A DNA stretch of 64,000 nt from Escherichia coli (GTDB lineage: Bacteria > Pseudomonadota > Gammaproteobacteria > Enterobacterales > Enterobacteriaceae). The position numbers and the translations under genes are program-made. The notes under the pieces were generated by a model. That model was given only the letters and a program-made list of their open reading frames with translations, had not been told where the DNA came from and did not search any database. This document shows, piece by piece, positions 20,820 to 61,100 of this stretch. The DNA lies in assembly GCF_013122565.1 (NCBI RefSeq), contig NZ_CP053258.1. One strand, written 5' to 3'. Each line of letters starts with the position of its first letter. The stretch's first letter is position 1.

Positions 20820-22240
20820 TGGCAGGGTTAAATAAATATCAGGCGTATCCGGAGTATAGGGATTCTGGGGTGGAGTGGTTGGGGGAGATACCCTCACACT
20901 GGAGCGTTAGCAAGCCCCGTTATATGTTTAATTTCGGCAAAGGGCTTACAATTACCAAAGAGAATCTCCAGGACGACGGGATACCTTGCATTAACTACGG
21001 TGAAATCCATTCAAAATATGGTTTTGAAGTATCCCCCAAAATTCACCCATTGAAATGCGTTGATGAGAAGTATATAAAAGATAATTCAGGCTCATTACTT
21101 TTAAAAGGAGACATTATTTTTGCAGACACATCTGAAGATATTGATGGTTCCGGTAATTTCTCACAACTAATCAGCGATAATATTTCATTCGCTGGTTATC
21201 ATACAATTATTGCCAAACCACTTAATAGAAGAAATTGGCGATTTTATGCTTATCTTCTTGATTGCAAAGAGTTGCGAACCCAAGTTAGACATGCAGTTAA
21301 GGGAGTAAAGGTATTTAGCATTACACAAGCTATTTTACGCGGCCTTTCTATTTGGCTCCCTACGGATGATGAACAGAGTAAAATAGCTGATTTCCTCGAC
21401 CACGAAACTGTAAAAATCGACAACCTAATCAAGAAACAACAACAACTCATTGAACTACTGAAAGAAAAACGTCAGGCAGTGATTAGCCATGCGGTGACCA
21501 AAGGGCTAAATCCTGATGTGCCGATGAAAGATTCTGGGGTTGCGTGGTTGGGGAAAATACCAAAACATTGGGAAATGAGTAAACTACGCTACATGTTTCG
21601 CTTCGGAAAAGGTCTAACAATTACAAAAGAACATCTGCACGATGAGGGGGTTCCATGTGTTAACTATGGCGAAATACATTCTAAATTTGGTTTCGAAATC
21701 GACCCTCAAATTCACAAATTAAAATGTGTTGATGAATCGTACATTCTAAATAACCCCGACTCATTGATCTATAAAGGAGATATTATATTTGCAGATACAT
21801 CTGAAGACATTGACGGCGCTGGTAATTTTACACAATTGATTAGCGATAACCAAATATTTGCCGGTTATCACACTATTATATTACGCCCTCTTAATAGAGA
21901 GTCCTTAAGGTTTTATGCATATATATTTGATAGCAAAGCACTACGGGCACAAATTAGTAATGCAGTGAAAGGCGTGAAAGTATTTAGTATTACTCAAGCC
22001 ATTCTTCGAAGTACATCGATATGGTTTCCACCATTATCAGAACGAGAACGTATTGTTGCATTTCTCGATAACCAAACAATAAAAATCGATACCCTAATTG
22101 AGAAACAACTCCACCAAATAGCTCTCCTAAAAGAACGCCGCACCGCCCTTATCTCCGCTGCCGTCACCGGAAAAATCGACCTACGCAACTGGACCGCCCC
22201 CATCCCCGAAGCGGAAACACCCACGGAGGCCAGCGCATGA
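20819..22240 (+). CDS. hsdS: Type I R-M specificity subunit with two near-identical target-recognition halves
   Basis: 473 aa; aa 16-228 and aa 239-452 are clearly homologous; each half ends in a conserved coiled-coil-like region (LIKKQQQLIELLKEKRQA / LIEKQLHQIALLKERRTA). Confidence 0.85.
   Translation: MAGLNKYQAYPEYRDSGVEWLGEIPSHWSVSKPRYMFNFGKGLTITKENLQDDGIPCINYGEIHSKYGFEVSPKIHPLKCVDEKYIKDNSGSLLLKGDIIFADTSEDIDGSGNFSQLISDNISFAGYHTIIAKPLNRRNWRFYAYLLDCKELRTQVRHAVKGVKVFSITQAILRGLSIWLPTDDEQSKIADFLDHETVKIDNLIKKQQQLIELLKEKRQAVISHAVTKGLNPDVPMKDSGVAWLGKIPKHWEMSKLRYMFRFGKGLTITKEHLHDEGVPCVNYGEIHSKFGFEIDPQIHKLKCVDESYILNNPDSLIYKGDIIFADTSEDIDGAGNFTQLISDNQIFAGYHTIILRPLNRESLRFYAYIFDSKALRAQISNAVKGVKVFSITQAILRSTSIWFPPLSERERIVAFLDNQTIKIDTLIEKQLHQIALLKERRTALISAAVTGKIDLRNWTAPIPEAETPTEASA
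20864..22175 (+). repeat. Internal tandem duplication (about 670-bp unit, 2 copies) within hsdS
   Basis: Direct comparison of the two halves of the translated ORF and underlying DNA (e.g. ggggtggagtggttggggga vs ggggttgcgtggttggggaa). Confidence 0.7.
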
Positions 22241-25200
22241 ACCACGACATTACAAAAGAGGTTAACCTGCAAAACGACATTATCGCGCAGATGGTGGAAA
22301 AAGGCTGGATTGTCGGCAAAGGTGACGGCTACGACCGGGAACGTGCGCTATACGCACAAGACACCTTAAACTTCGTAAAAACCACCCAACCGCAGGAGTG
22401 GGAGAAATTCGCACGCGTTTATCCCAACGACACCGAGCGCCATTTCCTCGACGCGCTGGTCGCGCAGCTTAAAAAAGCCGACAGCAACGCCACTGATATT
22501 CAGTCGCGCACCTGGGGTACGCTCGGCGTACTTCGCCACGGCCTGAAAATTCGCAATGCCCGTTTTTCGCTGTGCCAGTTTAAACCGGAACATAATCTCA
22601 ACCCGGAAACGCTGGCGCGCTATCAGCAGAATATCTGCCGTATTGTGCCGGAACTGGTCTACAGCCCGTATGCCTCAAATAGCGTCTTTGCAGAAACGGG
22701 CGTGAAAGCCAAAAAATGGCGTATCGATCTGGTGCTGTTTATCAACGGCCTGCCGGTTGCCACGCTGGAGCTAAAATCCGAATTTAAACAGGCGGTGCAG
22801 AACGCCATTGCCCAGTACAAAAAGACCCGCCTGCCGAAAGATCCCGCGACCAATAAACCTGAACCGCTGCTGACCTTTAAGCGCGGCGCGCTGGTACATT
22901 TTGCCGTCAGCCAGTATGACGTCTTTATGACCACCAAACTCGCCGGTGACAGCACCTTCTTCCTGCCGTTTAACAAAGGCACCAAAGACGGCGGCGCAGG
23001 CAACGAGATCCCCGAAGATACTCGCCGCTACGCCACAGATTATCTGTGGAATGAAGTGCTGCTGCCGGACAACTTATTAAAAATCCTCGCCAGTTTTGTC
23101 CATTTGCAGATTGAAGAAAAAGAGGACTGGAACGGGCTGAAAGCGAAGAAAGAGAGCCTGATTTTCCCGCGCTATCACCAGTGGGATGTGGTCAATAAAC
23201 TGCTGGAGGCCGCGACGATTGAAGGCACCGGCCACAAATACCTGATTCAGCACAGCGCCGGTTCCGGTAAATCGAACTCCATTGCCTGGACCGCCCACCA
23301 GCTTTCTCGTCTATACGACGTTAACGGGGAAAAACTGTTCCACTCCGTTATCGTGGTGACGGACCGTACGGTGCTGGACGACCAGCTTCAGGACACCATC
23401 TGGCAGTTCGAACATGCCGACGGCGTGGTCGGGCGCATCAATAACAGAGAGGGCGACGGCTCCAAATCGGAAAAGCTCGCCAGCGCGCTGGAAAACTCGC
23501 AGCCGATAATCATCGTCACCATCCAGACATTCCCGTTCGTACTGAAAGCTATCGAAAACAGCATCAGCCTGAAGCAGCGTAAATATGCGGTGATTGCCGA
23601 CGAAGCGCACTCATCGCAGAGCGGTTCCACCGCCCGTCAGCTTAAAGAAGTGCTGATGAGCGAAGAGATGGATGATGACGTGGTGCTGTCGTCAGAAGAT
23701 ATTCTGGATGCGACCATTGCCGCCCGGAAAGGCAGCAGTAACCTGAACTACTACGCCTTTACCGCCACGCCAAAATCCAAAACCCTGGAACTCTTTGGTC
23801 GCTGTCCGCGTCCCGATGAACCGGCCTCAAAAACCAATAAACCTGAGGCCTTCCACGTCTACTCCATGCGCCAGGCAATCGAAGAAGGCTTTATCCTCGA
23901 CGTGCTGAAAAACTACACCAACTACAAAGTGGCGTATCAGTTGCTGCAAAAGCTGGAAGATGAAAACCGCGAAGTCGATAGCAAACGGGCGAAGGTAAAA
24001 CTCAATCAGTGGGTGACGCTGCACGACCACAATATCTCGCAGAAGGTGAAGGTGATTGTGGAGCACTTCCGCAAACATGTGATGCATCTGCTTGGCGGCC
24101 AGGCTAAAGCGATGGTGGTCACCAGTTCACGCAAAGCCGCCGTGCGCTACAAGCTGGCGTTTGATAAATACATTAGCGAGAACAATTACCAGAAAATCAG
24201 CGCGATGGTGGCGTTTTCCGGGGAAGTTGAATTCCGGGAAGGCGACCATAACAGCCTGGCATTGTTAAACCAGAAATTTACTGAAATAAACATGAACCCC
24301 GGCCTGAAAGGGCGGGATATGCGCAAAGCCTTCGACAGCGATGATTATCAGGTCATGCTGGTTGCCAATAAATTCCAGACCGGTTTTGACCAGCCGAAGC
24401 TGTGCGCGATGTACGTGGATAAACCCCTCGGTGGCGTCGAGTGCGTGCAGACACTCTCCCGCCTGAACCGCACCTATCCGGGCAAAGCGGAATCAGGCAC
24501 TTTTGTCCTCGATTTTTATAACGATCCAGACGAGATCCTCGGCGCATTCCAGCCCTATTTCCAGACGGCGGAACTGACCGATGTCAGCGATCCGCAGCAG
24601 GTGTTCGATCTGTTTGAAAAACTGCGCGCCACGCAGATTTTCCAGTGGCATGAAGTCGAGCAGTTCTGCGAGGCATACTTCATCAAAAATAAATCGAATG
24701 CGGCGATCAGTAATATCTGCAAACCGGCGGTCGAACGCTGGAAAAAGCGTTATCTGATGGCGATAGACGCCTATTTGACCGCCAAAGAGATGTTCGAGCG
24801 CACCAAAAAAACGGGCGATACAGTATTAATCACCAATGCGGAAAACAGCTTTAAAGCCTGTAAGCAGGAGAAAGATCGTCTGGAGATTTTCAAGAAAGAT
24901 CTCGGCAGCTTTGTTCGTTTTTATGAATTTATGTCGCAGATCGTTGAATACGATGACAAGGATCTGGAAAAGCTAAGCCTGTTTGCTCGTCATCTGCGTC
25001 CGCTGCTGCATGAGCAACGTCTGGAAGAGGATGAAATTGATCTCAGTAATGTGGAGATGAGTCACTATCGTTTATCGAAAATCCATGAGCAAGATTTACG
25101 CTTACAGGAAGAAACGCCTGACTATACGCTGGATGCAAGTAATAATATTGGTACGGCAAAAGCGAAAGATAAAAAAGAGGAGTTTTTATCGCAGGTGCTT

Positions 25201-25500
25201 TCTCGGATGAATGAATTATTCATTAGCGACCATTTGACCGACAAAGATATGATCAGCAATGCTTTTGCGGTGTATAACAAAATAACTGAAAATGAAAATG
25301 TTATGACACAAATTAAAAACAATCCCCCAGAACAAGCGATTCTTGGTGATTTCCTCCAGGCAGTTGATAATGCTGTAATGGACAGTAATGACGCTCGGCA
25401 AGAATTTATGTTGCAATATTTATCCGATCCAGCTCGGGCAAAGGGCTTTGCTTATCTGATGTTTGATATGCTAACGGGGAAAATTGCTTTACCAACATAA
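22237..25500 (+). CDS. hsdR: Type I restriction enzyme R subunit (endonuclease/helicase)
   Basis: 1087 aa; N-terminal PD-(D/E)xK-like DLVLFINGLPVATLELK; SF2 motifs GSGKS and IADEAHSS (nt 23596-23610); ATGA overlap with hsdS stop. Confidence 0.88.
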   Translation: MNHDITKEVNLQNDIIAQMVEKGWIVGKGDGYDRERALYAQDTLNFVKTTQPQEWEKFARVYPNDTERHFLDALVAQLKKADSNATDIQSRTWGTLGVLRHGLKIRNARFSLCQFKPEHNLNPETLARYQQNICRIVPELVYSPYASNSVFAETGVKAKKWRIDLVLFINGLPVATLELKSEFKQAVQNAIAQYKKTRLPKDPATNKPEPLLTFKRGALVHFAVSQYDVFMTTKLAGDSTFFLPFNKGTKDGGAGNEIPEDTRRYATDYLWNEVLLPDNLLKILASFVHLQIEEKEDWNGLKAKKESLIFPRYHQWDVVNKLLEAATIEGTGHKYLIQHSAGSGKSNSIAWTAHQLSRLYDVNGEKLFHSVIVVTDRTVLDDQLQDTIWQFEHADGVVGRINNREGDGSKSEKLASALENSQPIIIVTIQTFPFVLKAIENSISLKQRKYAVIADEAHSSQSGSTARQLKEVLMSEEMDDDVVLSSEDILDATIAARKGSSNLNYYAFTATPKSKTLELFGRCPRPDEPASKTNKPEAFHVYSMRQAIEEGFILDVLKNYTNYKVAYQLLQKLEDENREVDSKRAKVKLNQWVTLHDHNISQKVKVIVEHFRKHVMHLLGGQAKAMVVTSSRKAAVRYKLAFDKYISENNYQKISAMVAFSGEVEFREGDHNSLALLNQKFTEINMNPGLKGRDMRKAFDSDDYQVMLVANKFQTGFDQPKLCAMYVDKPLGGVECVQTLSRLNRTYPGKAESGTFVLDFYNDPDEILGAFQPYFQTAELTDVSDPQQVFDLFEKLRATQIFQWHEVEQFCEAYFIKNKSNAAISNICKPAVERWKKRYLMAIDAYLTAKEMFERTKKTGDTVLITNAENSFKACKQEKDRLEIFKKDLGSFVRFYEFMSQIVEYDDKDLEKLSLFARHLRPLLHEQRLEEDEIDLSNVEMSHYRLSKIHEQDLRLQEETPDYTLDASNNIGTAKAKDKKEEFLSQVLSRMNELFISDHLTDKDMISNAFAVYNKITENENVMTQIKNNPPEQAILGDFLQAVDNAVMDSNDARQEFMLQYLSDPARAKGFAYLMFDMLTGKIALPT

Positions 25501-42600: not shown

Positions 42601-44877
42601 TCCATGACCGGGAACTTCACGCTAAGTAGTGAAACCGCCCGCACCGATGCAAACGGTGATGCCGTGGTCACATTGCGAGGCACAAAAGCGGGTGAGTTTA
42701 CAGTTACGGCGACGCTGACCAGAAATAACACCGTTGCTCATCAGCAAGTCACTTTTATTGGGGATACAAACAGTGCGCAGCTCCAGCCGCTGACTGCCTC
42801 ATTAAATACCATTGTTGCGGGTAACAGTACGGGGAGTACCCTGACGGCAACGATCCTGGACGCTTACCAAAATCCGCTTAAAGACCAGCAGGTCACATTC
42901 CAGAGTAACGATGTCACTCTAAGTGGAACAGAAGTCACCACCAATACGCTGGGTCAGGCGACGGTAACAATGACCAGCAATATTGCCGGACAACATAACG
43001 TCGTGGTGAGCCGGAAAGCGCAAGCCTCCGATAATAAAACGTTTAGTTTATCAGTGCTGCCGGATGAAAGTTCGGCGAAGGTAATAAGTATAACCGGAGC
43101 CGAAAAAACGATAACGGTGGGCGAAAACATCACGCTACGGATACTCGTCCAGGACGCGTTTAACAATGTAATAGCGGGTCAACGCGTCAGATTAAGTGCG
43201 CAGCCAACAGCTAACATTACGATAGGCGATACGGCTTACACCGATAATAACGGTTATGCGTACGTTAACCTTATTAGCACCCAGCCTGGGGTTTATCAGG
43301 TGACGGCAACGCTGGACAATAACAGTAGTAGTAAGGTTGACGTGAATGTGGCAAATGGCAAACTCGAGTTAACATCATCGAAGCCAGAAACCACGGTCCA
43401 TAATAGTGAAGGTATTACGCTTACCGCAACGGCGAGAAATGCTCGGGATGAATTGATGCCTGGGCAAATTATCACCTTTAGCGTAACGCCTGAAGGTGCA
43501 ACGCTAAGCAATACAGGGGAAATCCTTACTGACCAGTCTGGTCAGGCCAAAGTGACGCTGACCAGTGACAAAGTGAATATCTATACCGTTACGGCCACAA
43601 TGGGCAAAGATGTTCCCGTTCAGAGCCAGGTAACGGTTGCGGTTAAGGCAGATGCTAAAACGGCACATGTTGTGAGCGTCGTGGCTTCTCCTGACACCAT
43701 AACCGCCGACGGCGTTGATAGCAGCACCATCACTTCACGAGTAGAAGATGATTACGGATTCCCGGTTGAAGGTGTCGATGTTAGTTATGCCTTAGACACC
43801 AAAGGCAGCCCGGTAGTTAATATTCCAACTACGCGTACCGATCAGTCCGGGCAAGTCACGGCGACAATAACCAGTACATTGGCAGAAACCTTAACAGTCA
43901 ATGTGCAAGTTCCTGGTACAGCCAACCAATCCGCAACCATTACATTGGTTGCCGGCACGGCCGATGAAAGTAAGTCAATTTTGAAATCCGACGTTGACAC
44001 TCTGAAGGCTGACTACCAGCAGAGCGCAAAACTTACGCTAACATTGCAAGACAAGTACGGTAACCCGATAGTGACGTCTGATCATCTGGAATTTGTCCAG
44101 TCAGGCCCCTTCGTGAACTTTCTCAAGTTGAGCGATATTGATTACAGCCAAAGAAATTATGGCGAGTACACCGTGACTGTCACTGGCGGAAAAGAGGGAA
44201 CAGCGACCCTCATTCCCATGCTGAACGGGGTTCATCAGGCAAACTTAAGCATATCGCTGAATCTCATCCACTCGATAAAAGAAATGTCCGGTCATGTCAC
44301 TGCAAACAACCATACCTTCTCAACGGCTAAATTCCCGAGCGAAGGTTTTGCAGGAGCGTATTACACACTCAACAATGATAACTTTGAAGCGGGTAAAACC
44401 GTTGATGATTATATGTTTTCAAGTTCACAGAGTTGGGTGTCTGTCGATGCTTCAGGTAAGGTTTCTTTCGCAAATATCGGCGATCAAACGTCAGTCACAA
44501 TAAGCGCTGTTCCCCGACAAGGAGGTACAACCTACCAGACCTTAATTAAGCTGAAAGGCTGGTGGGTGAATAATGGAAATCATACCAATATCTGGCTAGC
44601 TGCCAATGCGCTCTGTCATGCTAAAAATGATGGATATAATCTTCCTGGCATCACACATTTGACGTCTGGCGAAAACAAACGCACGCAGGGATCGCTGTAT
44701 GGTGAATGGGGGAACGTTGGAGCGTTTTCCAGTAATTCGCAATTTACACCGGGAGCTTACTGGACAAGTGAATCTGATGATTACAGTCGGCACTACTATG
44801 TGCAGATGCTAACCGGTATGACCGGAAGCGACGCTGATTCCAGCCCCCAACTGACCGCCTGCCGTAAATCACTTTAA
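39637..44877 (+). CDS. Inverse autotransporter adhesin (intimin/invasin family) with LysM, beta-barrel, about 12 Big domains and C-terminal lectin-like domain
   Basis: 1746 aa; LysM (YTLGALESAQSVADRFGISLEELRRLNQ); intimin/invasin barrel region (GLGWRHF...GWDLRAEGWLPAWPQLGGKLVYEQYYGDEVALF); repeated Big-like units (e.g. TLTVTAHDSDGTPVPG, TLTAIITDFHNNPLKD); Cys-containing C-terminal domain. Confidence 0.8.
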   Translation: MASTNAHQIKNNVQNSLCGLGDKIRRLTAGVCLFTQIFFPVMATAQNVVHAKPQTTVSSAPPLLENNTVPYTLGALESAQSVADRFGISLEELRRLNQFRTFARGFDNVRQGEELDVPATTSQKSHEQQNAVPPANGENTLENQIASTSQRVSTLLSQDMNSEQASGMARGWASSEASGAMTDWLNNFGTARISLGVDEDFSLKNSQFDFLHPWYDTPDYLLFSQHTLHRTDDRTQINTGLGWRHFTSSWMSGINLFFDHDLSRYHSRAGLGAEYWRDYLKLSSNAYIGLTGWRSAPELDNDFEARPANGWDLRAEGWLPAWPQLGGKLVYEQYYGDEVALFDKNDRQSNPHAITAGLNYTPFPLMTLSAEQRQGKQGENDTRFAVDLTWQPSSSMQKQLNPDEVAGRRSLAGSRYDLIDRNNNIVLEYRKKELIRLSLLDPVKGKSGEIKPLVSSLQTKYALKGYHIEAAALEAAGGKVSTSGKDITVTLPGYRFTNTPETDNTWSIDVTAEDVKGNLSRHEQSMVVIQAPTLSQKDSLLSVNPLTVAADKKSTTTLTVTAHDSDGTPVPGLELQTRSEGVQDITLSDWTDNGDGSYTQMLTAGTTSGSVTLTPQINGESAVKESIVVNIVPVVSSRDHSSITIDNVSYYAGDDIKVRVELKDDSNQPVAYQKEELVKAVTVENSKPGATIVWHEEQPGVYAANYPAHKQGTALRAQLNLHNWNAPLQSHIYNIEANQNKARVATLSATNNDVYADKKTFNTLTINVTDESDNPLTNHQVTFKNEKGSAEFVEPPQQNTDGYGVATINMVSQVAEENTISATLPNGFSQRIIAKFVSDSSTPKFKQLVADPDTIIAGNSQGSTLTAIITDFHNNPLKDMKVNFVAPGGSQLDNTTATTDQSGIVRVHLTSSKAGSYSVDASLEADKNIHQSVTITVVPNREQSVMTLNAGSGSAIANNTNTVILTASVKDVYGHPLPDEDVKFTLPASMTGNFTLSSETARTDANGDAVVTLRGTKAGEFTVTATLTRNNTVAHQQVTFIGDTNSAQLQPLTASLNTIVAGNSTGSTLTATILDAYQNPLKDQQVTFQSNDVTLSGTEVTTNTLGQATVTMTSNIAGQHNVVVSRKAQASDNKTFSLSVLPDESSAKVISITGAEKTITVGENITLRILVQDAFNNVIAGQRVRLSAQPTANITIGDTAYTDNNGYAYVNLISTQPGVYQVTATLDNNSSSKVDVNVANGKLELTSSKPETTVHNSEGITLTATARNARDELMPGQIITFSVTPEGATLSNTGEILTDQSGQAKVTLTSDKVNIYTVTATMGKDVPVQSQVTVAVKADAKTAHVVSVVASPDTITADGVDSSTITSRVEDDYGFPVEGVDVSYALDTKGSPVVNIPTTRTDQSGQVTATITSTLAETLTVNVQVPGTANQSATITLVAGTADESKSILKSDVDTLKADYQQSAKLTLTLQDKYGNPIVTSDHLEFVQSGPFVNFLKLSDIDYSQRNYGEYTVTVTGGKEGTATLIPMLNGVHQANLSISLNLIHSIKEMSGHVTANNHTFSTAKFPSEGFAGAYYTLNNDNFEAGKTVDDYMFSSSQSWVSVDASGKVSFANIGDQTSVTISAVPRQGGTTYQTLIKLKGWWVNNGNHTNIWLAANALCHAKNDGYNLPGITHLTSGENKRTQGSLYGEWGNVGAFSSNSQFTPGAYWTSESDDYSRHYYVQMLTGMTGSDADSSPQLTACRKSL

Positions 44878-55886: not shown

Positions 55887-56068
55887 CGTTACGTTAGATA
55901 TAGAGAAAAGAGGTTGTACTGTGCAATATGCAAACCGCATAAGCGAATATAATTTCTAAGTTGATATTGTCTGGCTGTTGGGAGCTAAGCAATATAAATA
56001 TCACCAGTTGTCAGAACGGTTATATAGACCAGGAGCGTTTCGGCTCCTGGTCTGTTTCGGACATATTA

Positions 56069-58183
56069 TCAGTCAGCCACTAATAGCGGGCTAGGGATAC
56101 CAGATGATGAAACAAACAGCCCTTTTACGGCACGGGTTGCAGCCACATGCAGTAACGCGCGCTCATTAAATAATGCATCACGCTGTTCAACGGGATCATC
56201 GGATGCTAATGCTTTTATTTCCGGCACAACGCCTTCGTTAATTCCCACCAGGAACACATACTGGAACTCAAGCCCTTTAATACGGTGCATCGTTGCAACC
56301 CGCACGCCAGGGCGTGCATCGCTGTCACCGCTATCATTGCCTAAATTAAATGTCTCAATTCCGGCGTCATTCAGTGCTGATGCGTAGCGGTCACAAGCAT
56401 GTTTAGTACGCGCAGTAATGCAGATATCCTGAGAACGAACCTGATTCGCCAGCAATGCCTGAATTTGCTTGACGAGCGTTGCAGCCTCTTCTTTGAAATC
56501 TGCCGCATGCGTAATCATGGGCTTTTCCCCGTGCAGTAATGACAAATAATCATTACTGGTATCCGCTTCGCCATCGAGGTTATCAACCTTCACACCAGTT
56601 AACAGCCCAACAGCAAATTGACGCGTCTCTTCTGTGGTCCGATAGTTAATCTTCAATTTTTTACTGCGACGACCACGGACGTTAATACCACACTGACCAA
56701 GAACGACCTTATTGCGATAAATACGCTGATGCCCATCCCCGACAATAAACAGATCGTTGGGCGACTCGGGAACCAGGCTGCGAATAAGAGTAAATGCCGG
56801 GGCACCGATATCTTGAGCTTCATCGACCACAATACTGCTATAAGGTAGTTGAACCTGTTTTTCTTTAAACAGAACAATAGCCTCATGCATGGCATCGCCC
56901 ATTTCGCGCAGTTTGGCACGCGCCATTTGTGCTCTGAATTCTTCAAAGACTGGCCAGATTTTCGCCCGTTGAATACGGGATAACGCTGTACCACGTCCAA
57001 CCCGGCTGACTTTGAGGTATTCCTCCCGGGTGTAAACCGCATTTGGCTGGACAACGCGTTGCCACTCTTCAGCATAGAAATTGTCAGGTAGCCCCAGTTC
57101 GGCAGGTGCCTGCTGCAAGGCATAGTTCCAGCATTTGCGTCGCCCTTCATCGCTGTCGTATACCACGCGGAAATCATAACCGTGGCGTTTTAGTTGGTCG
57201 CTCATCCAGGCATCAATGTTAACGACGTCAATACGCGCCATCTCTTCTCGCGTACACAACCGCTGGAGATTAGCGCGAATATCTGCCGCCAGGTTACGCG
57301 TAAATGTCGTGAAAAGTACCTTCTTACCGGGTTTATCTGCCAGACGCTGAGATAACCACCGCGCACGGTGCATCGCAACAACCGTTTTCCCTGTACCTGC
57401 ACCACCCAGTACTCGTACCGGACCATTAGCGGGCGACTCCACCAGTTTTCGCTGGCTCGGATGCAGAAATACACGCCATTTTTCTAAAGGCGCATTAAGC
57501 ATCTGCAACAGCTCCTGTTCATTTTCAACGACATGGAAGCGACGTTTACTTCGTTCAATCGCCTCCATAAAGTCGTTGGTATCAACAGGCTCATCACGAT
57601 GATCGTTAAACTCTTCCAGCACTTCCTGGTAATCCAGCCCTTCTGCCAGCCAGTGCAGAGGTTCCCAGGCTTCTGCTGGCATTATGCTTTCAAGTTGATT
57701 AAGCCCGGCTTCATCGGTAAGCGCCATCACCTGATCAATAAAGACAGGCGGCACACCCAGGGCCAGAATCTGTTCCGCGCTGTAAGCTGCGAAGAGTTTC
57801 GGTTTATCAACCACCGTTTCCGCTGCCGGTTTGATATAGCTAATATCAATGACCTGAATCGCGCCGGTAACCGGGTGAATCGAACAATCATGCCGCCGCG
57901 CCCAGTCGTATGCTTCGTCGTGTTTATCCACCCACATCAGCATATACAGGGCACCCTGTTCAGGTTTCAGAACAATGCCGCGATAAGTTTGATCGATTCG
58001 CACCGAATGGACATTTTTACTGCGCGCATCGTGGATCTTTTCATAGTTAAGTCCATTACTGGTCGGGTCCTGACGGAATTTGGAGATGAATTCCTGCACC
58101 TTTTTTTGCTGTGCTTTTGGGATCCGCGCGAATGCGCCCAGAAAACCATCAGAAAGTGCCACCTTGGGCGTTTGCACCGTCAT
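56069..58183 (-). CDS. UvrD/PcrA-like SF1 helicase with about 220-aa N-terminal domain of unknown function
   Basis: 704 aa; Walker A VLGGAGTGKT; VVDEAQD; FIVGDGHQRIY; C-terminal RIKGLEFQYVFLVG; start overlaps the stop of the upstream giant gene (ATGA). Confidence 0.8.
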   Translation of the reverse strand: MTVQTPKVALSDGFLGAFARIPKAQQKKVQEFISKFRQDPTSNGLNYEKIHDARSKNVHSVRIDQTYRGIVLKPEQGALYMLMWVDKHDEAYDWARRHDCSIHPVTGAIQVIDISYIKPAAETVVDKPKLFAAYSAEQILALGVPPVFIDQVMALTDEAGLNQLESIMPAEAWEPLHWLAEGLDYQEVLEEFNDHRDEPVDTNDFMEAIERSKRRFHVVENEQELLQMLNAPLEKWRVFLHPSQRKLVESPANGPVRVLGGAGTGKTVVAMHRARWLSQRLADKPGKKVLFTTFTRNLAADIRANLQRLCTREEMARIDVVNIDAWMSDQLKRHGYDFRVVYDSDEGRRKCWNYALQQAPAELGLPDNFYAEEWQRVVQPNAVYTREEYLKVSRVGRGTALSRIQRAKIWPVFEEFRAQMARAKLREMGDAMHEAIVLFKEKQVQLPYSSIVVDEAQDIGAPAFTLIRSLVPESPNDLFIVGDGHQRIYRNKVVLGQCGINVRGRRSKKLKINYRTTEETRQFAVGLLTGVKVDNLDGEADTSNDYLSLLHGEKPMITHAADFKEEAATLVKQIQALLANQVRSQDICITARTKHACDRYASALNDAGIETFNLGNDSGDSDARPGVRVATMHRIKGLEFQYVFLVGINEGVVPEIKALASDDPVEQRDALFNERALLHVAATRAVKGLFVSSSGIPSPLLVAD

Positions 58184-61100
58184 TTGTCACCTCCGGACAG
58201 ATGTTGCAATGTATTTTCGTCAATTGGCCCGAATGCAACGTGCCAACCTCTGGTTGTGAATAATGGAATAAATTCTTGATTATCAATAATCAATGCCCAT
58301 TTTTGTGATGGCCAGGCGAGATCGGCTTCTGCAATAATTTCACCCTCATCATTTTGCAATTCGTAGCCGAGAGTCGGCGCAGAGAGAGAATGAGACTGAA
58401 GCAACGCGATCTCTTCAGCGCTTAATAAGCCAAACTCAATAATCTCAGCCCAACTTTCATCAGTCTCTGGTACTGCCTCTGGCGTTGCCGAAACTTTAGT
58501 GTCAACGCTTTCCTGCGGTAAATGCACGGCTTTACGGCTGGTAAAGGTCATATCCGGCAGGAACTGTAACAGGTTTACCAGTCGCCAGAAGCCATTGAGT
58601 CCCGCTTCATAACCGTCATCCTGCGTATAGCGATCGTCAAAACAGATATGCAAACGCAGCCAGCTGCGCATTTGTGCGACGCTGGTCGTCGGTTTAATGG
58701 CTTGTTGTGGTAACACCGAAGCCAGTTCAATAAATTGCTGCGATGAGTTACAGCTATCGAGTAAACCACCAAAGACAAACGGTTCGTCTGGCAAAAGCTC
58801 TGCTAGCCGCCAGGCTGGCGCGTTTTCCTGCATTTCATAGGCATACTTTTGTTTCGTTCCCGCGTCCTGTGACTTCTTCACATCCAACCACACCCAGGCA
58901 TGTGCAGCAGCCATTCTCTGCCATAACTGCGTTCTTCCGCCCGGATCGGCGAGATAATCCAGCAGCAGTGCAAAACTGTTACGTTCCCGGAACGACGCTT
59001 CAAGGGCCGCAAAGTTGGTATCGTGAAACAGGTTATAAAACTTAGGCTGTTTCATATCCGGGTTATGCCCAAGTCCCAGGACATCCTGAACATGTTTAAG
59101 CCCAGGCTCTTTGAGATCGGCCCACGTGACTGTCCACACCCAGAAATTACCGCTATCCCGAATCGCCTGGCGTTTTTGCACATCCTCTGCGACGCTATTT
59201 TTGTGGAACGCAAAGCCATCAAGGAAAATAGCCACCGGTTTAATGGCATCAGACTGCATAAGCGGATATAGCACGTAATCCGGGCGACAAGGGATCCCCA
59301 CCGCCTCTTTAGCGCCTAAATCCACCTGAGCTTTAAGATGCCAGCTCATCATCGGTTCGCTGCGGGTGTTAATAATCCACCCAGCGCCCTGATGCGCGTA
59401 ACTGCGACTGACAATCAGGTTTTTATTTTCTTGCAGGCAGCTAATAAACCGTTTTTCCAGCTCACTGCCCATCATGGCTTCGAGGGAAATGTTTTTGATG
59501 GAATCAATTACCCGTATCGAATCTCTTGCCTGCAAAATTTTCGCCAGCAAGAGACGCGCCTGATCGCGGGAGACATACTTCATGCGCCCACGGTCACGGT
59601 AAGCGTAAACGCAACGATAACAACCATCTTTATGCGTATCATTGTTGCAACTGCATTCCACTATTGCCTGATAGGCCAGTTCAAGTAATTTCAGCAAATT
59701 GTCGGGAGTGCGCATCAGCTCTTTAAGAGAACCAGTTCCCCCCGGGACGGTATCGTAAATCACCAGATACTGCCGCCAGGATTCGCCTTCATTTTCCGGC
59801 TCGCGGTACACAACGCCTTTCAGGTGATCGACATTCCCCTTGAAGTAATGCTTAAGGCCGAGCTGGATCGCCGCCCCAAGAGAAGCCTCCACGACACGGT
59901 CATTACTGTAACTGCTTACCGGGAGCAGAATACGCAACGCTTCTGACTCCAGCTGGCGATAGAGGTAGAGATAATCTTCGAACTTCGCCTTTTCCGGTTC
60001 CGTGCGATATTTGCAGCTCAAATCATGACGTGGTTCATGATCGCGAGGACGCTGCACCATGCCGCACCCGAGGCAAACTTTAAACCCGGTTCGCTTCTTC
60101 GCTTCTCCGGCAATCATCAACTCATTGGCATCATCCGCCATTTTGCCGAAGTTGATATCCCGCAGGGTGACTTTGCTTAAAAATTCAAAACCAAACGGAA
60201 CTTCGCCTTCCTCAATCGCGTATGCCGCCGATACATCTTCTTTTTCGAAACTAACCAATAGCTGACGCTGGAAGAAAGCAGGTTCACGGCTGTCGCTCTC
60301 GTCGCTGATCTGGCTATCACGTGCGCTGGCGCGGGCATAAACCTGGCGAAGTTTCAGCAGCGTGGTTTTTTGTCCGGCATCGGCCCACCCCGGTGTGCCA
60401 CATTTCGGGCAATATTTATGCTGGTCGCCCGTCTGGTCGATATTTTCGCTGTAGTTACAGTGGCTACAGATACGCCAGTTCTCCGGCTCAGAGACCTTCA
60501 GGTCTATCTGCTCAATTTCAACTTTATGCCCACCGGCATAGAAATTATTCAGCGGAGCCAGCTCAGCCAGCGCCGTTGATGCCGGGCGTTCATATTCGAA
60601 AGTGGTGTTTTGATATTCACGCGCTTCCCCGCCTTCTTTACGCCGCCAGAGCACAGAACGTAACGTAATACCGGCTTCCGGGAAGGCGTAGTTAGGCAGC
60701 AGCCCTTCATCCGTGAGGAAATTCAGCGTTTGCTTATTGTTGATTTGATTGACCAGCGCCATCAGCGCCTGTCGTTCTGAAGTTAACTCGCGCATATCGC
60801 TATCAAAGTTTTGATCGCGCGGCGCGTTCTCCAGTTTATCGATACTGCGCTTGAGCTTATCGATGCGTGAGCGCAAAGATTTGCGATCTTCCACCAGCAG
60901 TTTTAACGCTTCTTCGATACGCTGCACCAGCGAGCGTTGTCCTGGCGCGCCCTGAAGATAAGACAACAGCTGTTGGCGAGTTTCTGCGGCAAGATCGGGG
61001 AAGATCGCCGTAAATTGTGCAGCAATCTCCGCATGATGCTGTTCGATATATCGCAGTAAGTTATACGGAAAACCCGATTTACGCCCGAACTCCAGCTCAT

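Follow-up and report, generated by a model that had tools for sequence, protein, structure and literature searches.

A UvrD-family helicase gene with a predicted RelE/YoeB-fold head in Escherichia coli as armD of the ARMADA type II defence system

A gene for a UvrD-like helicase that carries an extra region ahead of its motor domains, and whose start codon overlaps the end of a giant helicase gene, raises the question of which system it serves and whether the two proteins act together. This gene lies in a 64,000-nucleotide stretch of Escherichia coli chromosomal DNA (contig NZ_CP053258.1 of assembly GCF_013122565.1), hereafter the window. It was described in the original prediction, made from the sequence alone, as a helicase with an uncharacterised N-terminal domain that is coupled to its giant neighbour. 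The analysis presented here identifies it, almost certainly, as armD, which encodes the fourth and last component of the anti-phage defence system ARMADA type II; the explanation of the gene as a whole is assigned a probability of roughly 0.85. The component has already been published, and the ArmD of the window is an allelic variant from another E. coli lineage rather than a new protein. The features first required are as follows.

56069..58183, minus strand: armD coding sequence (ARMADA type II component D), 704 residues, ATG start, from the open reading frame and its translation
58180..58183, minus strand: ATGA overlap of the armD start codon with the armC stop codon, from the sequence
58180..64000, minus strand: armC, of whose 6.3 kb the 3' 5.8 kb are included; it encodes a YprA-family DEAH helicase of 2113 residues and is annotated at full length in NZ_CM129892.1

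The translation of armD begins with the N-terminal peptide that had been quoted for it, and the predicted 4-bp overlap with the upstream gene was found.

ARMADA type II is defined by ArmA (a BrxHII-like helicase), ArmB (a PglX-like methyltransferase), ArmC and ArmD in a 2025 preprint entitled [quoted passage not shown], which describes ArmC as a YprA-like helicase carrying a Vsr-type nuclease at its C-terminus and already states that ArmD has an N-terminal RelE-like domain (10.1101/2025.09.15.676423). A second preprint reports the same armABCD operon as z5899-z5902 in O-island 172 of EDL933 (10.1101/2025.09.22.677730). The published ArmD proteins come from E. coli NCTC 12900, ATCC 8739 and EDL933 (z5902) (10.1101/2025.09.15.676423; 10.1101/2025.09.22.677730), and the ArmD of the window shares with them its length, residue numbering, four-gene operon and Zorya II and Druantia III neighbours. 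It differs by one residue from WP_000218177.1 of E. coli MB06022. O157:H7 copies of armD are 99.2% identical in DNA to the window gene, and this identity, together with the common numbering, excluded the possibility that the tested O157:H7 armD is a different gene. Eight published mutation sites (ArmD K266 and D454, ArmA K136 and D236, ArmC K110 and D234, ArmB N971 and G605) were compared with the Walker A, Walker B, NPPW and S-adenosylmethionine (SAM)-binding motifs expected of them, and all eight fell on those motifs in the proteins of the window and of locus L002. The architecture agrees as well, with a RelE-like domain at the N-terminus followed by a UvrD-family helicase in ArmD, a YprA-family helicase with a zinc-binding DUF1998/MZB module in ArmC (Pfam, and profile matches to DruE, DrmA and DpdJ), and four co-directional genes in ARMADA II order in an annotated E. 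coli genome that is 99.1% identical to the window.

The published phenotypes place armD in a working defence system. Plasmid-borne ARMADA of E. coli NCTC 12900 conferred resistance to 13 of 80 phages; the defence was lost when any one arm gene was deleted, was abolished by the Walker A substitution K266A in ArmD and partially lost with D454N, and was described as direct and non-abortive (10.1101/2025.09.15.676423). Deletion of armD sensitised cells to phage Bas18, less so than deletion of the other arm genes, and arm mutants grew normally without phage (10.1101/2025.09.22.677730). These results concern O157:H7 alleles that are 99.2% identical to the present one, for which dependence of phage resistance on armD may be presumed by likeness. 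ARMADA II has been reported as the dominant phage-resistance determinant of enterohaemorrhagic E. coli O157:H7, acting synergistically with Druantia III, which makes the system relevant to phage therapy and to the way in which large helicase-nuclease defences are built. The present finding is therefore the rediscovery of a published component, in which the instinct that the gene is coupled to its neighbour proved right and the supposedly unknown domain has a name, RelE/YoeB.

The gene had been read as coupled to the giant helicase gene. The pair is present, but it makes up the last two genes, at the 3' side, of the four-gene operon armA-armB-armC-armD, of which only these two were visible because the window ends inside armC. 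The first ~179 codons of armC lie past that end, so that the open reading frame of 1934 residues seen in the window is an internal-ATG artefact of the 2113-residue protein; the DUF1998 domain ascribed to the giant gene is real (Pfam MZB). Besides a Pfam Helicase_C match, two parts of ArmC were located.

59608..59877, minus strand: MZB (MrfA Zn-binding, formerly DUF1998) domain of ArmC, Pfam PF09369, E 7e-13
58234..58461, minus strand: extreme C-terminal segment of ArmC, matching ZorE profiles in their C-terminal part (PADLOC ZorE2, E 5e-9; NCBIfam ZorE, E 2.7e-4)

The ZorE-like segment comprises the last ~75 residues of ArmC; in the Zorya II system of this island, ZorE acts as the effector.

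The context past the window end was read from the 99.1%-identical genome. On the strand of armD, armC is accompanied there by genes for a class I SAM-dependent DNA methyltransferase of 1637 residues, a DEAD/DEAH helicase of 952 residues, a helicase of 2107 residues and a STY4851-family protein, after which come a divergent zorA2-zorB2-zorE set, an integrase gene and tRNA-Leu. PADLOC profiles assigned the two outermost co-directional genes to Druantia III (DruE3, 2180 bits; DruH3, 2542 bits), the 952-residue protein (ArmA) to DrmD/BrxHII-like SNF2 helicases (DrmD, 333 bits) and the 1637-residue methyltransferase (ArmB, a large enzyme of N6-adenine type) to REase_MTase_IIG (929 bits) and DrmMI (193 bits), and ArmC gave distant matches to DruE3 (347 bits) and DruE1 (324 bits) and scored 50 bits on DrmA. 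The operon lies in the leuX defence island of E. coli, beside Druantia III and Zorya II.

The operon resembles DISARM class 1 and Druantia III in that ArmA is similar to DrmD and ArmB to DrmMI, while ArmC combines in one protein the equivalents of the DrmA helicase and of DrmB with its DUF1998 module, and obtains its highest profile scores against DruE. It differs from them in that ArmC is a single fused protein and ARMADA II has no separate DrmB, no phospholipase D (PLD)-type DrmC and no DruH. Membership of DISARM class 1, which has separate DrmA and DrmB and optionally the PLD nuclease DrmC, does not fit this operon, given the fused ArmC and the lack of a PLD gene. Canonical DISARM and Druantia have no ArmD counterpart, although an ArmD-like gene does follow DrmA-DrmB in Vibrio ezurae.

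At 95% identity or more, armD was found in 532 of 5426 complete E. coli genomes (9.8%) and it sits in a tRNA-Leu island; it is therefore an accessory gene of the species. Of 539 armD matches in complete E. coli genomes, 22 lie on plasmids, so ARMADA II is also plasmid-borne in E. coli.

Whether armD belongs with armC was addressed through the wider family, which is defined by the ArmD N-terminal module and comprises 1813 representative clusters. A scan of one genome per species with this module identified at least 565 genomes that carry it, spread over many phyla, from which 80 loci were fetched, and the 57 loci with at least 6.5 kb of upstream sequence served as the test set. The module continues in frame into the helicase core at every locus whose contig permits the check. 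An ArmC homologue lies immediately upstream, on the same strand, in 55 of the 57 genomes, which again span many phyla, so that a mostly standalone family, the outcome that had been named as fatal to the coupling, is not what is found. The gene is tied to the giant DUF1998 helicase and not to a Gabija-type TOPRIM ATPase, as had been proposed. A strict filter, which demanded an ArmC homologue ending beside the ArmD start, was passed by 52 loci; three more (L043, L054 and L077) have ArmC upstream but failed the gap or start-codon heuristics. Among the 52, the armC-armD gap is -4 nt at 19 loci and between -17 and +3 nt at 42.

The two exceptions still involve DUF1998/YprA-family helicases. In Vibrio ezurae (L012, 334-12148) the ArmD-like gene is the last of an operon that starts with DrmA-DrmB, and in a Holophagaceae metagenome-assembled genome (MAG; L014, 9980-20585) it lies upstream of genes for a 1014-residue protein and a DruE-like helicase of 1792 residues. 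Among DUF1998/YprA helicases in general, the RelE-UvrD module seems to act as a portable partner. A physical or functional partnership of ArmC and ArmD is probable on this evidence, and the gene arrangement would also be consistent with stoichiometric coupling of the two proteins. Two side observations concern these junctions. The Vibrio ezurae operon holds three more genes, encoding proteins of 389 (small, UvrD/HelD-like), 507 and 628 residues. In Leclercia sp. 29361 (L007, 8466-12115) an intact armD stands behind an armC remnant encoding the C-terminal 512 residues, with no ArmA or ArmB visible; the locus looks like a decaying system in which the ATGA junction has been retained.

The region ahead of the helicase core, put at 220 residues in the original prediction, is present at a length of ~240 and was divided as follows.

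57893..58183, minus strand: RelE/YoeB-fold domain, residues 1-97, beta-alpha-alpha-beta-beta-beta-alpha
57785..57892, minus strand: conserved beta-hairpin (residues 98-115, with T106-G107-x-x-Q110) followed by a variable linker (116-133), from secondary structure and alignment
57608..57784, minus strand: small helical subdomain, residues 134-192, with conserved L139, G143, P145, P169, L176 and G182
57464..57607, minus strand: linker and pre-helicase alpha/beta element, residues 193-240, from the alignment

Sequence searches with the N-terminus were uninformative. Pfam gave nothing significant on residues 1-240, and for the N-terminal 236 residues phmmer and profile searches of the PDB, PADLOC and Pfam returned nothing usable, with a Txe/YoeB hint at E 0.06 from NCBIfam. 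It was structure that supplied the answer: the first domain has the compact, ~90-residue beta-alpha-alpha-beta-beta-beta(-alpha) arrangement of the RelE/ParE superfamily, and this predicted RelE/YoeB fold is detectable only by that route. The domain is therefore not without a name, and RelE is already given for it both in the ARMADA preprint (10.1101/2025.09.15.676423) and in the JGI annotation of homologues (“SF I helicase / RelE”). No confident fold match was obtained for residues 134-192, nor a separate one for residues 98-240. In the hairpin T106, G107 and Q110 are near-invariant; the linker at 116-133 is variable in length, with a mean pairwise identity of 0.18, and residues 204-240 (mean identity 0.46) finish with an invariant W236-R-V-F-L leading up to the helicase Q-motif.

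Alignment of 58 full-length homologues indicates that the RelE-like domain is conserved about as strongly as the motor, with a mean pairwise identity of 0.44 against 0.48-0.52 for the 1A segments and 0.36 for 2A, and it appears to keep residues of the YoeB catalytic type. H88 is present in 58 of the 58, R62 and R68 in 57, and E48 and D89 in 55. In YoeB, the catalytic residues are E46, R65 and H83 (with Y84). Profile alignment to the E. coli YoeB reference, whose sequence was checked against PDB 2a6q, paired E48 with E46, R62 with R59 and R68 with R65 and, in global mode, H88 with H83; YoeB Y84 falls on D89. These alignments are statistically weak (E 0.011-0.06), and the match is accordingly suggestive and not proof. 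The residue set suggests that the domain may be active, and true RNase activity is given slightly under even odds.

The ArmD N-terminus is a domain of RelE fold and not a toxin-antitoxin module. No cognate small antitoxin gene was found next to armD, where the upstream neighbour is the 2113-residue armC with its 4-nt overlap and the downstream neighbours are a hairpin and then uxuA. Compared with the toxins YoeB, RelE and YafQ (PDB 2a6q, 2khe and 4q2u), to which it is 14-18% identical in sequence, the domain lacks the antitoxin gene, is fused to a 600-residue helicase and is not toxic when its partners are deleted. A free-running toxin is disfavoured by the non-abortive defence and by the normal growth of mutants that lack ArmA, ArmB or ArmC. 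Cami1, the CARF-RelE protein of type III CRISPR systems (PDB 8phb and 8phj), is switched by cyclic oligoadenylate through its CARF domain and acts on ribosomes; ArmD has a superfamily 1A (SF1A) motor instead and is not known to respond to any signal.

That motor, predicted to be a complete UvrD-like core, was found to be so, with both Pfam halves (UvrD-helicase, PF00580, residues 241-490; UvrD_C, PF13361, residues 509-693) and all SF1 motifs retained.

56072..57463, minus strand: compact SF1A helicase core of UvrD/Rep type, residues 241-704 (464 residues)
57383..57406, minus strand: Walker A (motif I), G260-T267 (GGAGTGKT), including K266, from the alignment
56810..56830, minus strand: Walker B (motif II), residues 452-458 (VVDEAQD), including D454, from the alignment

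SF1A motifs Q, I, Ia, II, III, IV, V and VI are all recognisable, and invariant or near-invariant positions in the 58 homologues comprise G260/G263/T264/G265/K266, D454/E455/Q457/D458, D483/Q486, Y514/R515, K636/G637/E639/F640 and T683/R684. The core has 464 residues where Rep and UvrD have ~650, and for its 2A half the best match is the C-terminal domain of HelD, which has no 2B; the large accessory 2B domain thus appears reduced or absent. The HelD-type N-terminal arm that inserts into RNA polymerase is lacking in ArmD. Since D454N weakens defence without abolishing it, binding of ATP may count for more than its rapid hydrolysis, and ArmD would then more likely be a switch or clamp than a processive helicase.

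These observations can be accommodated in the following working model. Methylation by ArmB would mark host DNA as self, and ArmA and ArmC would translocate along unmodified phage DNA and cut it. ArmD would be produced in step with ArmC and act as its partner, its ATP-bound SF1A motor loading on 3' single-stranded DNA or on nicks made by ArmC. The RelE-like head (E48, R62, R68, H88, D89) could then cleave or bind RNA locally, in the form of nascent phage transcripts, R-loops or primers; such local action would be more plausible than a cell-wide shutdown of translation. Several points weigh against this model. Translational coupling of ArmC and ArmD is read from the gene overlap, and a complex of the two is presumptive. 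The YoeB equivalences come from profile alignments of low confidence (E 0.011-0.06), the published ArmD mutants are confined to Walker A and B, and both sources on ARMADA are preprints. Classical RelE/YoeB toxins cut mRNA in the ribosomal A site, into which a fusion of 704 residues may not fit, and a general mRNA interferase sits poorly with the reported non-abortive phenotype.

The most serious alternative is that the RelE-fold domain is catalytically silent and serves as an adaptor that docks ArmC, another Arm protein or nucleic acid, leaving ArmD to contribute only an ATP-dependent motor or switch. Such a role would explain the marginal sequence similarity to any RelE/ParE family and would suit a domain packed with the rest of ArmD into what is predicted to be one compact body (predicted template-modelling score, pTM, 0.86-0.88), for which the invariant W94 and W236 and other hydrophobic residues could provide an interface; the non-abortive defence and the absence of toxicity in single arm mutants are also in its favour. 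The invariant residues of the head are, however, polar or charged and of the RelE/YoeB active-site type (E48, R62, R68, H88, D89), three of which (E48, R68 and H88) align with YoeB E46, R65 and H83, and a structural domain would not normally be so fixed across phyla. The silent adaptor is a real but tentative possibility.

A mode of action like that of GajB, in which ArmD would sense DNA ends from a partner nuclease, consume nucleotides and bring about abortive infection, is improbable. It draws on the GajB-like label used in both preprints (10.1101/2025.09.15.676423; 10.1101/2025.09.22.677730), on the GajB models being the best PADLOC profiles for ArmD (123 bits, E 2.5e-36) and on the requirement for ATP binding, K266A having abolished defence. 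The label was tested and proved loose. ArmD and GajB are each UvrD-family SF1A proteins and accessory subunits of a defence system, but GajB is not the closest relative of ArmD among UvrD-family helicases; the ArmD motor is closer to Rep, UvrD1 and HelD, a point that goes beyond the main text of the preprints. No GajA-like gene (an OLD-family ATPase with a TOPRIM nuclease) was found in the armD operon or island, and cell survival at high multiplicity of infection, partly reported, speaks against abortive infection. Less probable still is a ParE-like N-domain that poisons DNA gyrase or topoisomerase, or recruits them on phage DNA. Fortuitous adjacency, in which a housekeeping or repair UvrD paralogue with generic UvrD/PcrA/Rep similarity happens to lie beside a giant helicase gene, is refuted by the co-occurrence and mostly overlapping junctions described above, and runs against the accessory, tRNA-Leu-island location and the published deletion phenotypes.

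The boundary between armB and armC, at which other defence genes are often inserted, behaves differently from the armC-armD junction. At about 20 loci no ArmB-like gene was present within 3.5 kb upstream of ArmC, its place being taken by zorA2-zorB2-zorE (L010, L011, L019 and L077) or, at other loci, by genes for DpdE/ZorD-like SNF2, TmtA-like, PtuA/MAD3-like ATPase, SoFic, Drt3b or Hsp70-like proteins. A two-gene ArmCD system without ArmA and ArmB, or a Zorya-ArmCD hybrid, was considered and rejected, as five extended loci show ArmB-like genes farther upstream. All five encode an ArmB-like methyltransferase, of ~1620-1680 residues (836 in L088, at a contig end), and an ArmA-like SNF2 helicase was present in the three that reach far enough (L083, L084 and L087). 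Their armB-armC cargo, co-directional in each case, is as follows.

L083, 26-20398, co-directional, Aliidiomarina: GmrSD and Zorya II (zorA-zorB-zorE)
L084, 1-21782, co-directional, Halomonas: Abi_2, a 557-residue protein and a second SNF2
L085, 1-21248, co-directional, gammaproteobacterial MAG: HamA and a helicase, a DUF1016 protein and an AAA_15/AAA_21/DUF4276 set
L087, 954-21024, co-directional, Methylomicrobium: a 285-residue protein and a UvrD-like protein of 770 residues
L088, 205-14762, co-directional, Campylobacterales MAG: TIR, an SMC-like ATPase and Fic

Cargo within the armC-armD junction was never found at the loci examined (80 fetched), and the main text of 10.1101/2025.09.15.676423 is silent on nested cargo in ARMADA II. 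Nesting at one boundary and integrity at the other may help to define functional sub-modules of ARMADA II. A bolder proposal, doubtful as a whole, is that the RelE head is a working and locally targeted RNase, that ArmC and ArmD form an obligate effector pair and that the armB-armC boundary is a landing pad for defence systems (Zorya II, Hachiman-like, GmrSD, TIR/Fic and AAA_15-DUF4276). If this were true, the RNase head would give ARMADA II an RNA-directed arm beside the DNA nuclease of ArmC without killing the cell, and the landing pad could be the physical basis of the reported synergy between these systems.

On the other side of armD the operon appears to end at a hairpin, followed by the unrelated gene uxuA.

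56026..56053, minus strand: 11-bp G+C-rich hairpin that starts 15 nt past the armD stop codon, from RNA folding

The hairpin has a folding energy of about -22 kcal/mol (z = -4.75), and none of 200 shuffled sequences was equally stable. The consensus terminator scan made no call after armD because the hairpin lacks a T-run (U-tract). It is probably the 3' end of the operon transcript or a stabilising element.

Genes downstream of armD vary with the host. In Enterobacterales other than E. coli (Citrobacter, Siccibacter, Mangrovibacter, Enterobacter and Yersinia; L003-L006, L008 and L009, about 12305-18240, plus strand) armD is followed on the same strand by three conserved genes, for proteins of ~460, 638 and 900 residues, which are absent from the window, where uxuA follows armD. 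In distant phyla, a DruE-like gene (split, 899 and 920 residues) or a DruH-like gene lies downstream of armD, as in Paenibacillus validus (L041, 14065-19526) and at L060 (17827-19104), echoing the pairing of ARMADA II with Druantia III in E. coli.

Two further loci were noted in the window. A gene for an inverse-autotransporter adhesin of 1746 residues (IatC/intimin-like; NCBIfam Ve_IatC_Nterm, 1127 bits) lies at 39637-44877, plus strand, between yjiJ and kptA; it is missing at that site in E. coli MB06022, where kptA comes directly after yjiJ. A type I restriction-modification operon occupies 18465-25500, plus strand, and encodes a methyltransferase (784 residues) together with specificity (473) and restriction (1087) subunits, so that the window holds a second, separate defence locus.

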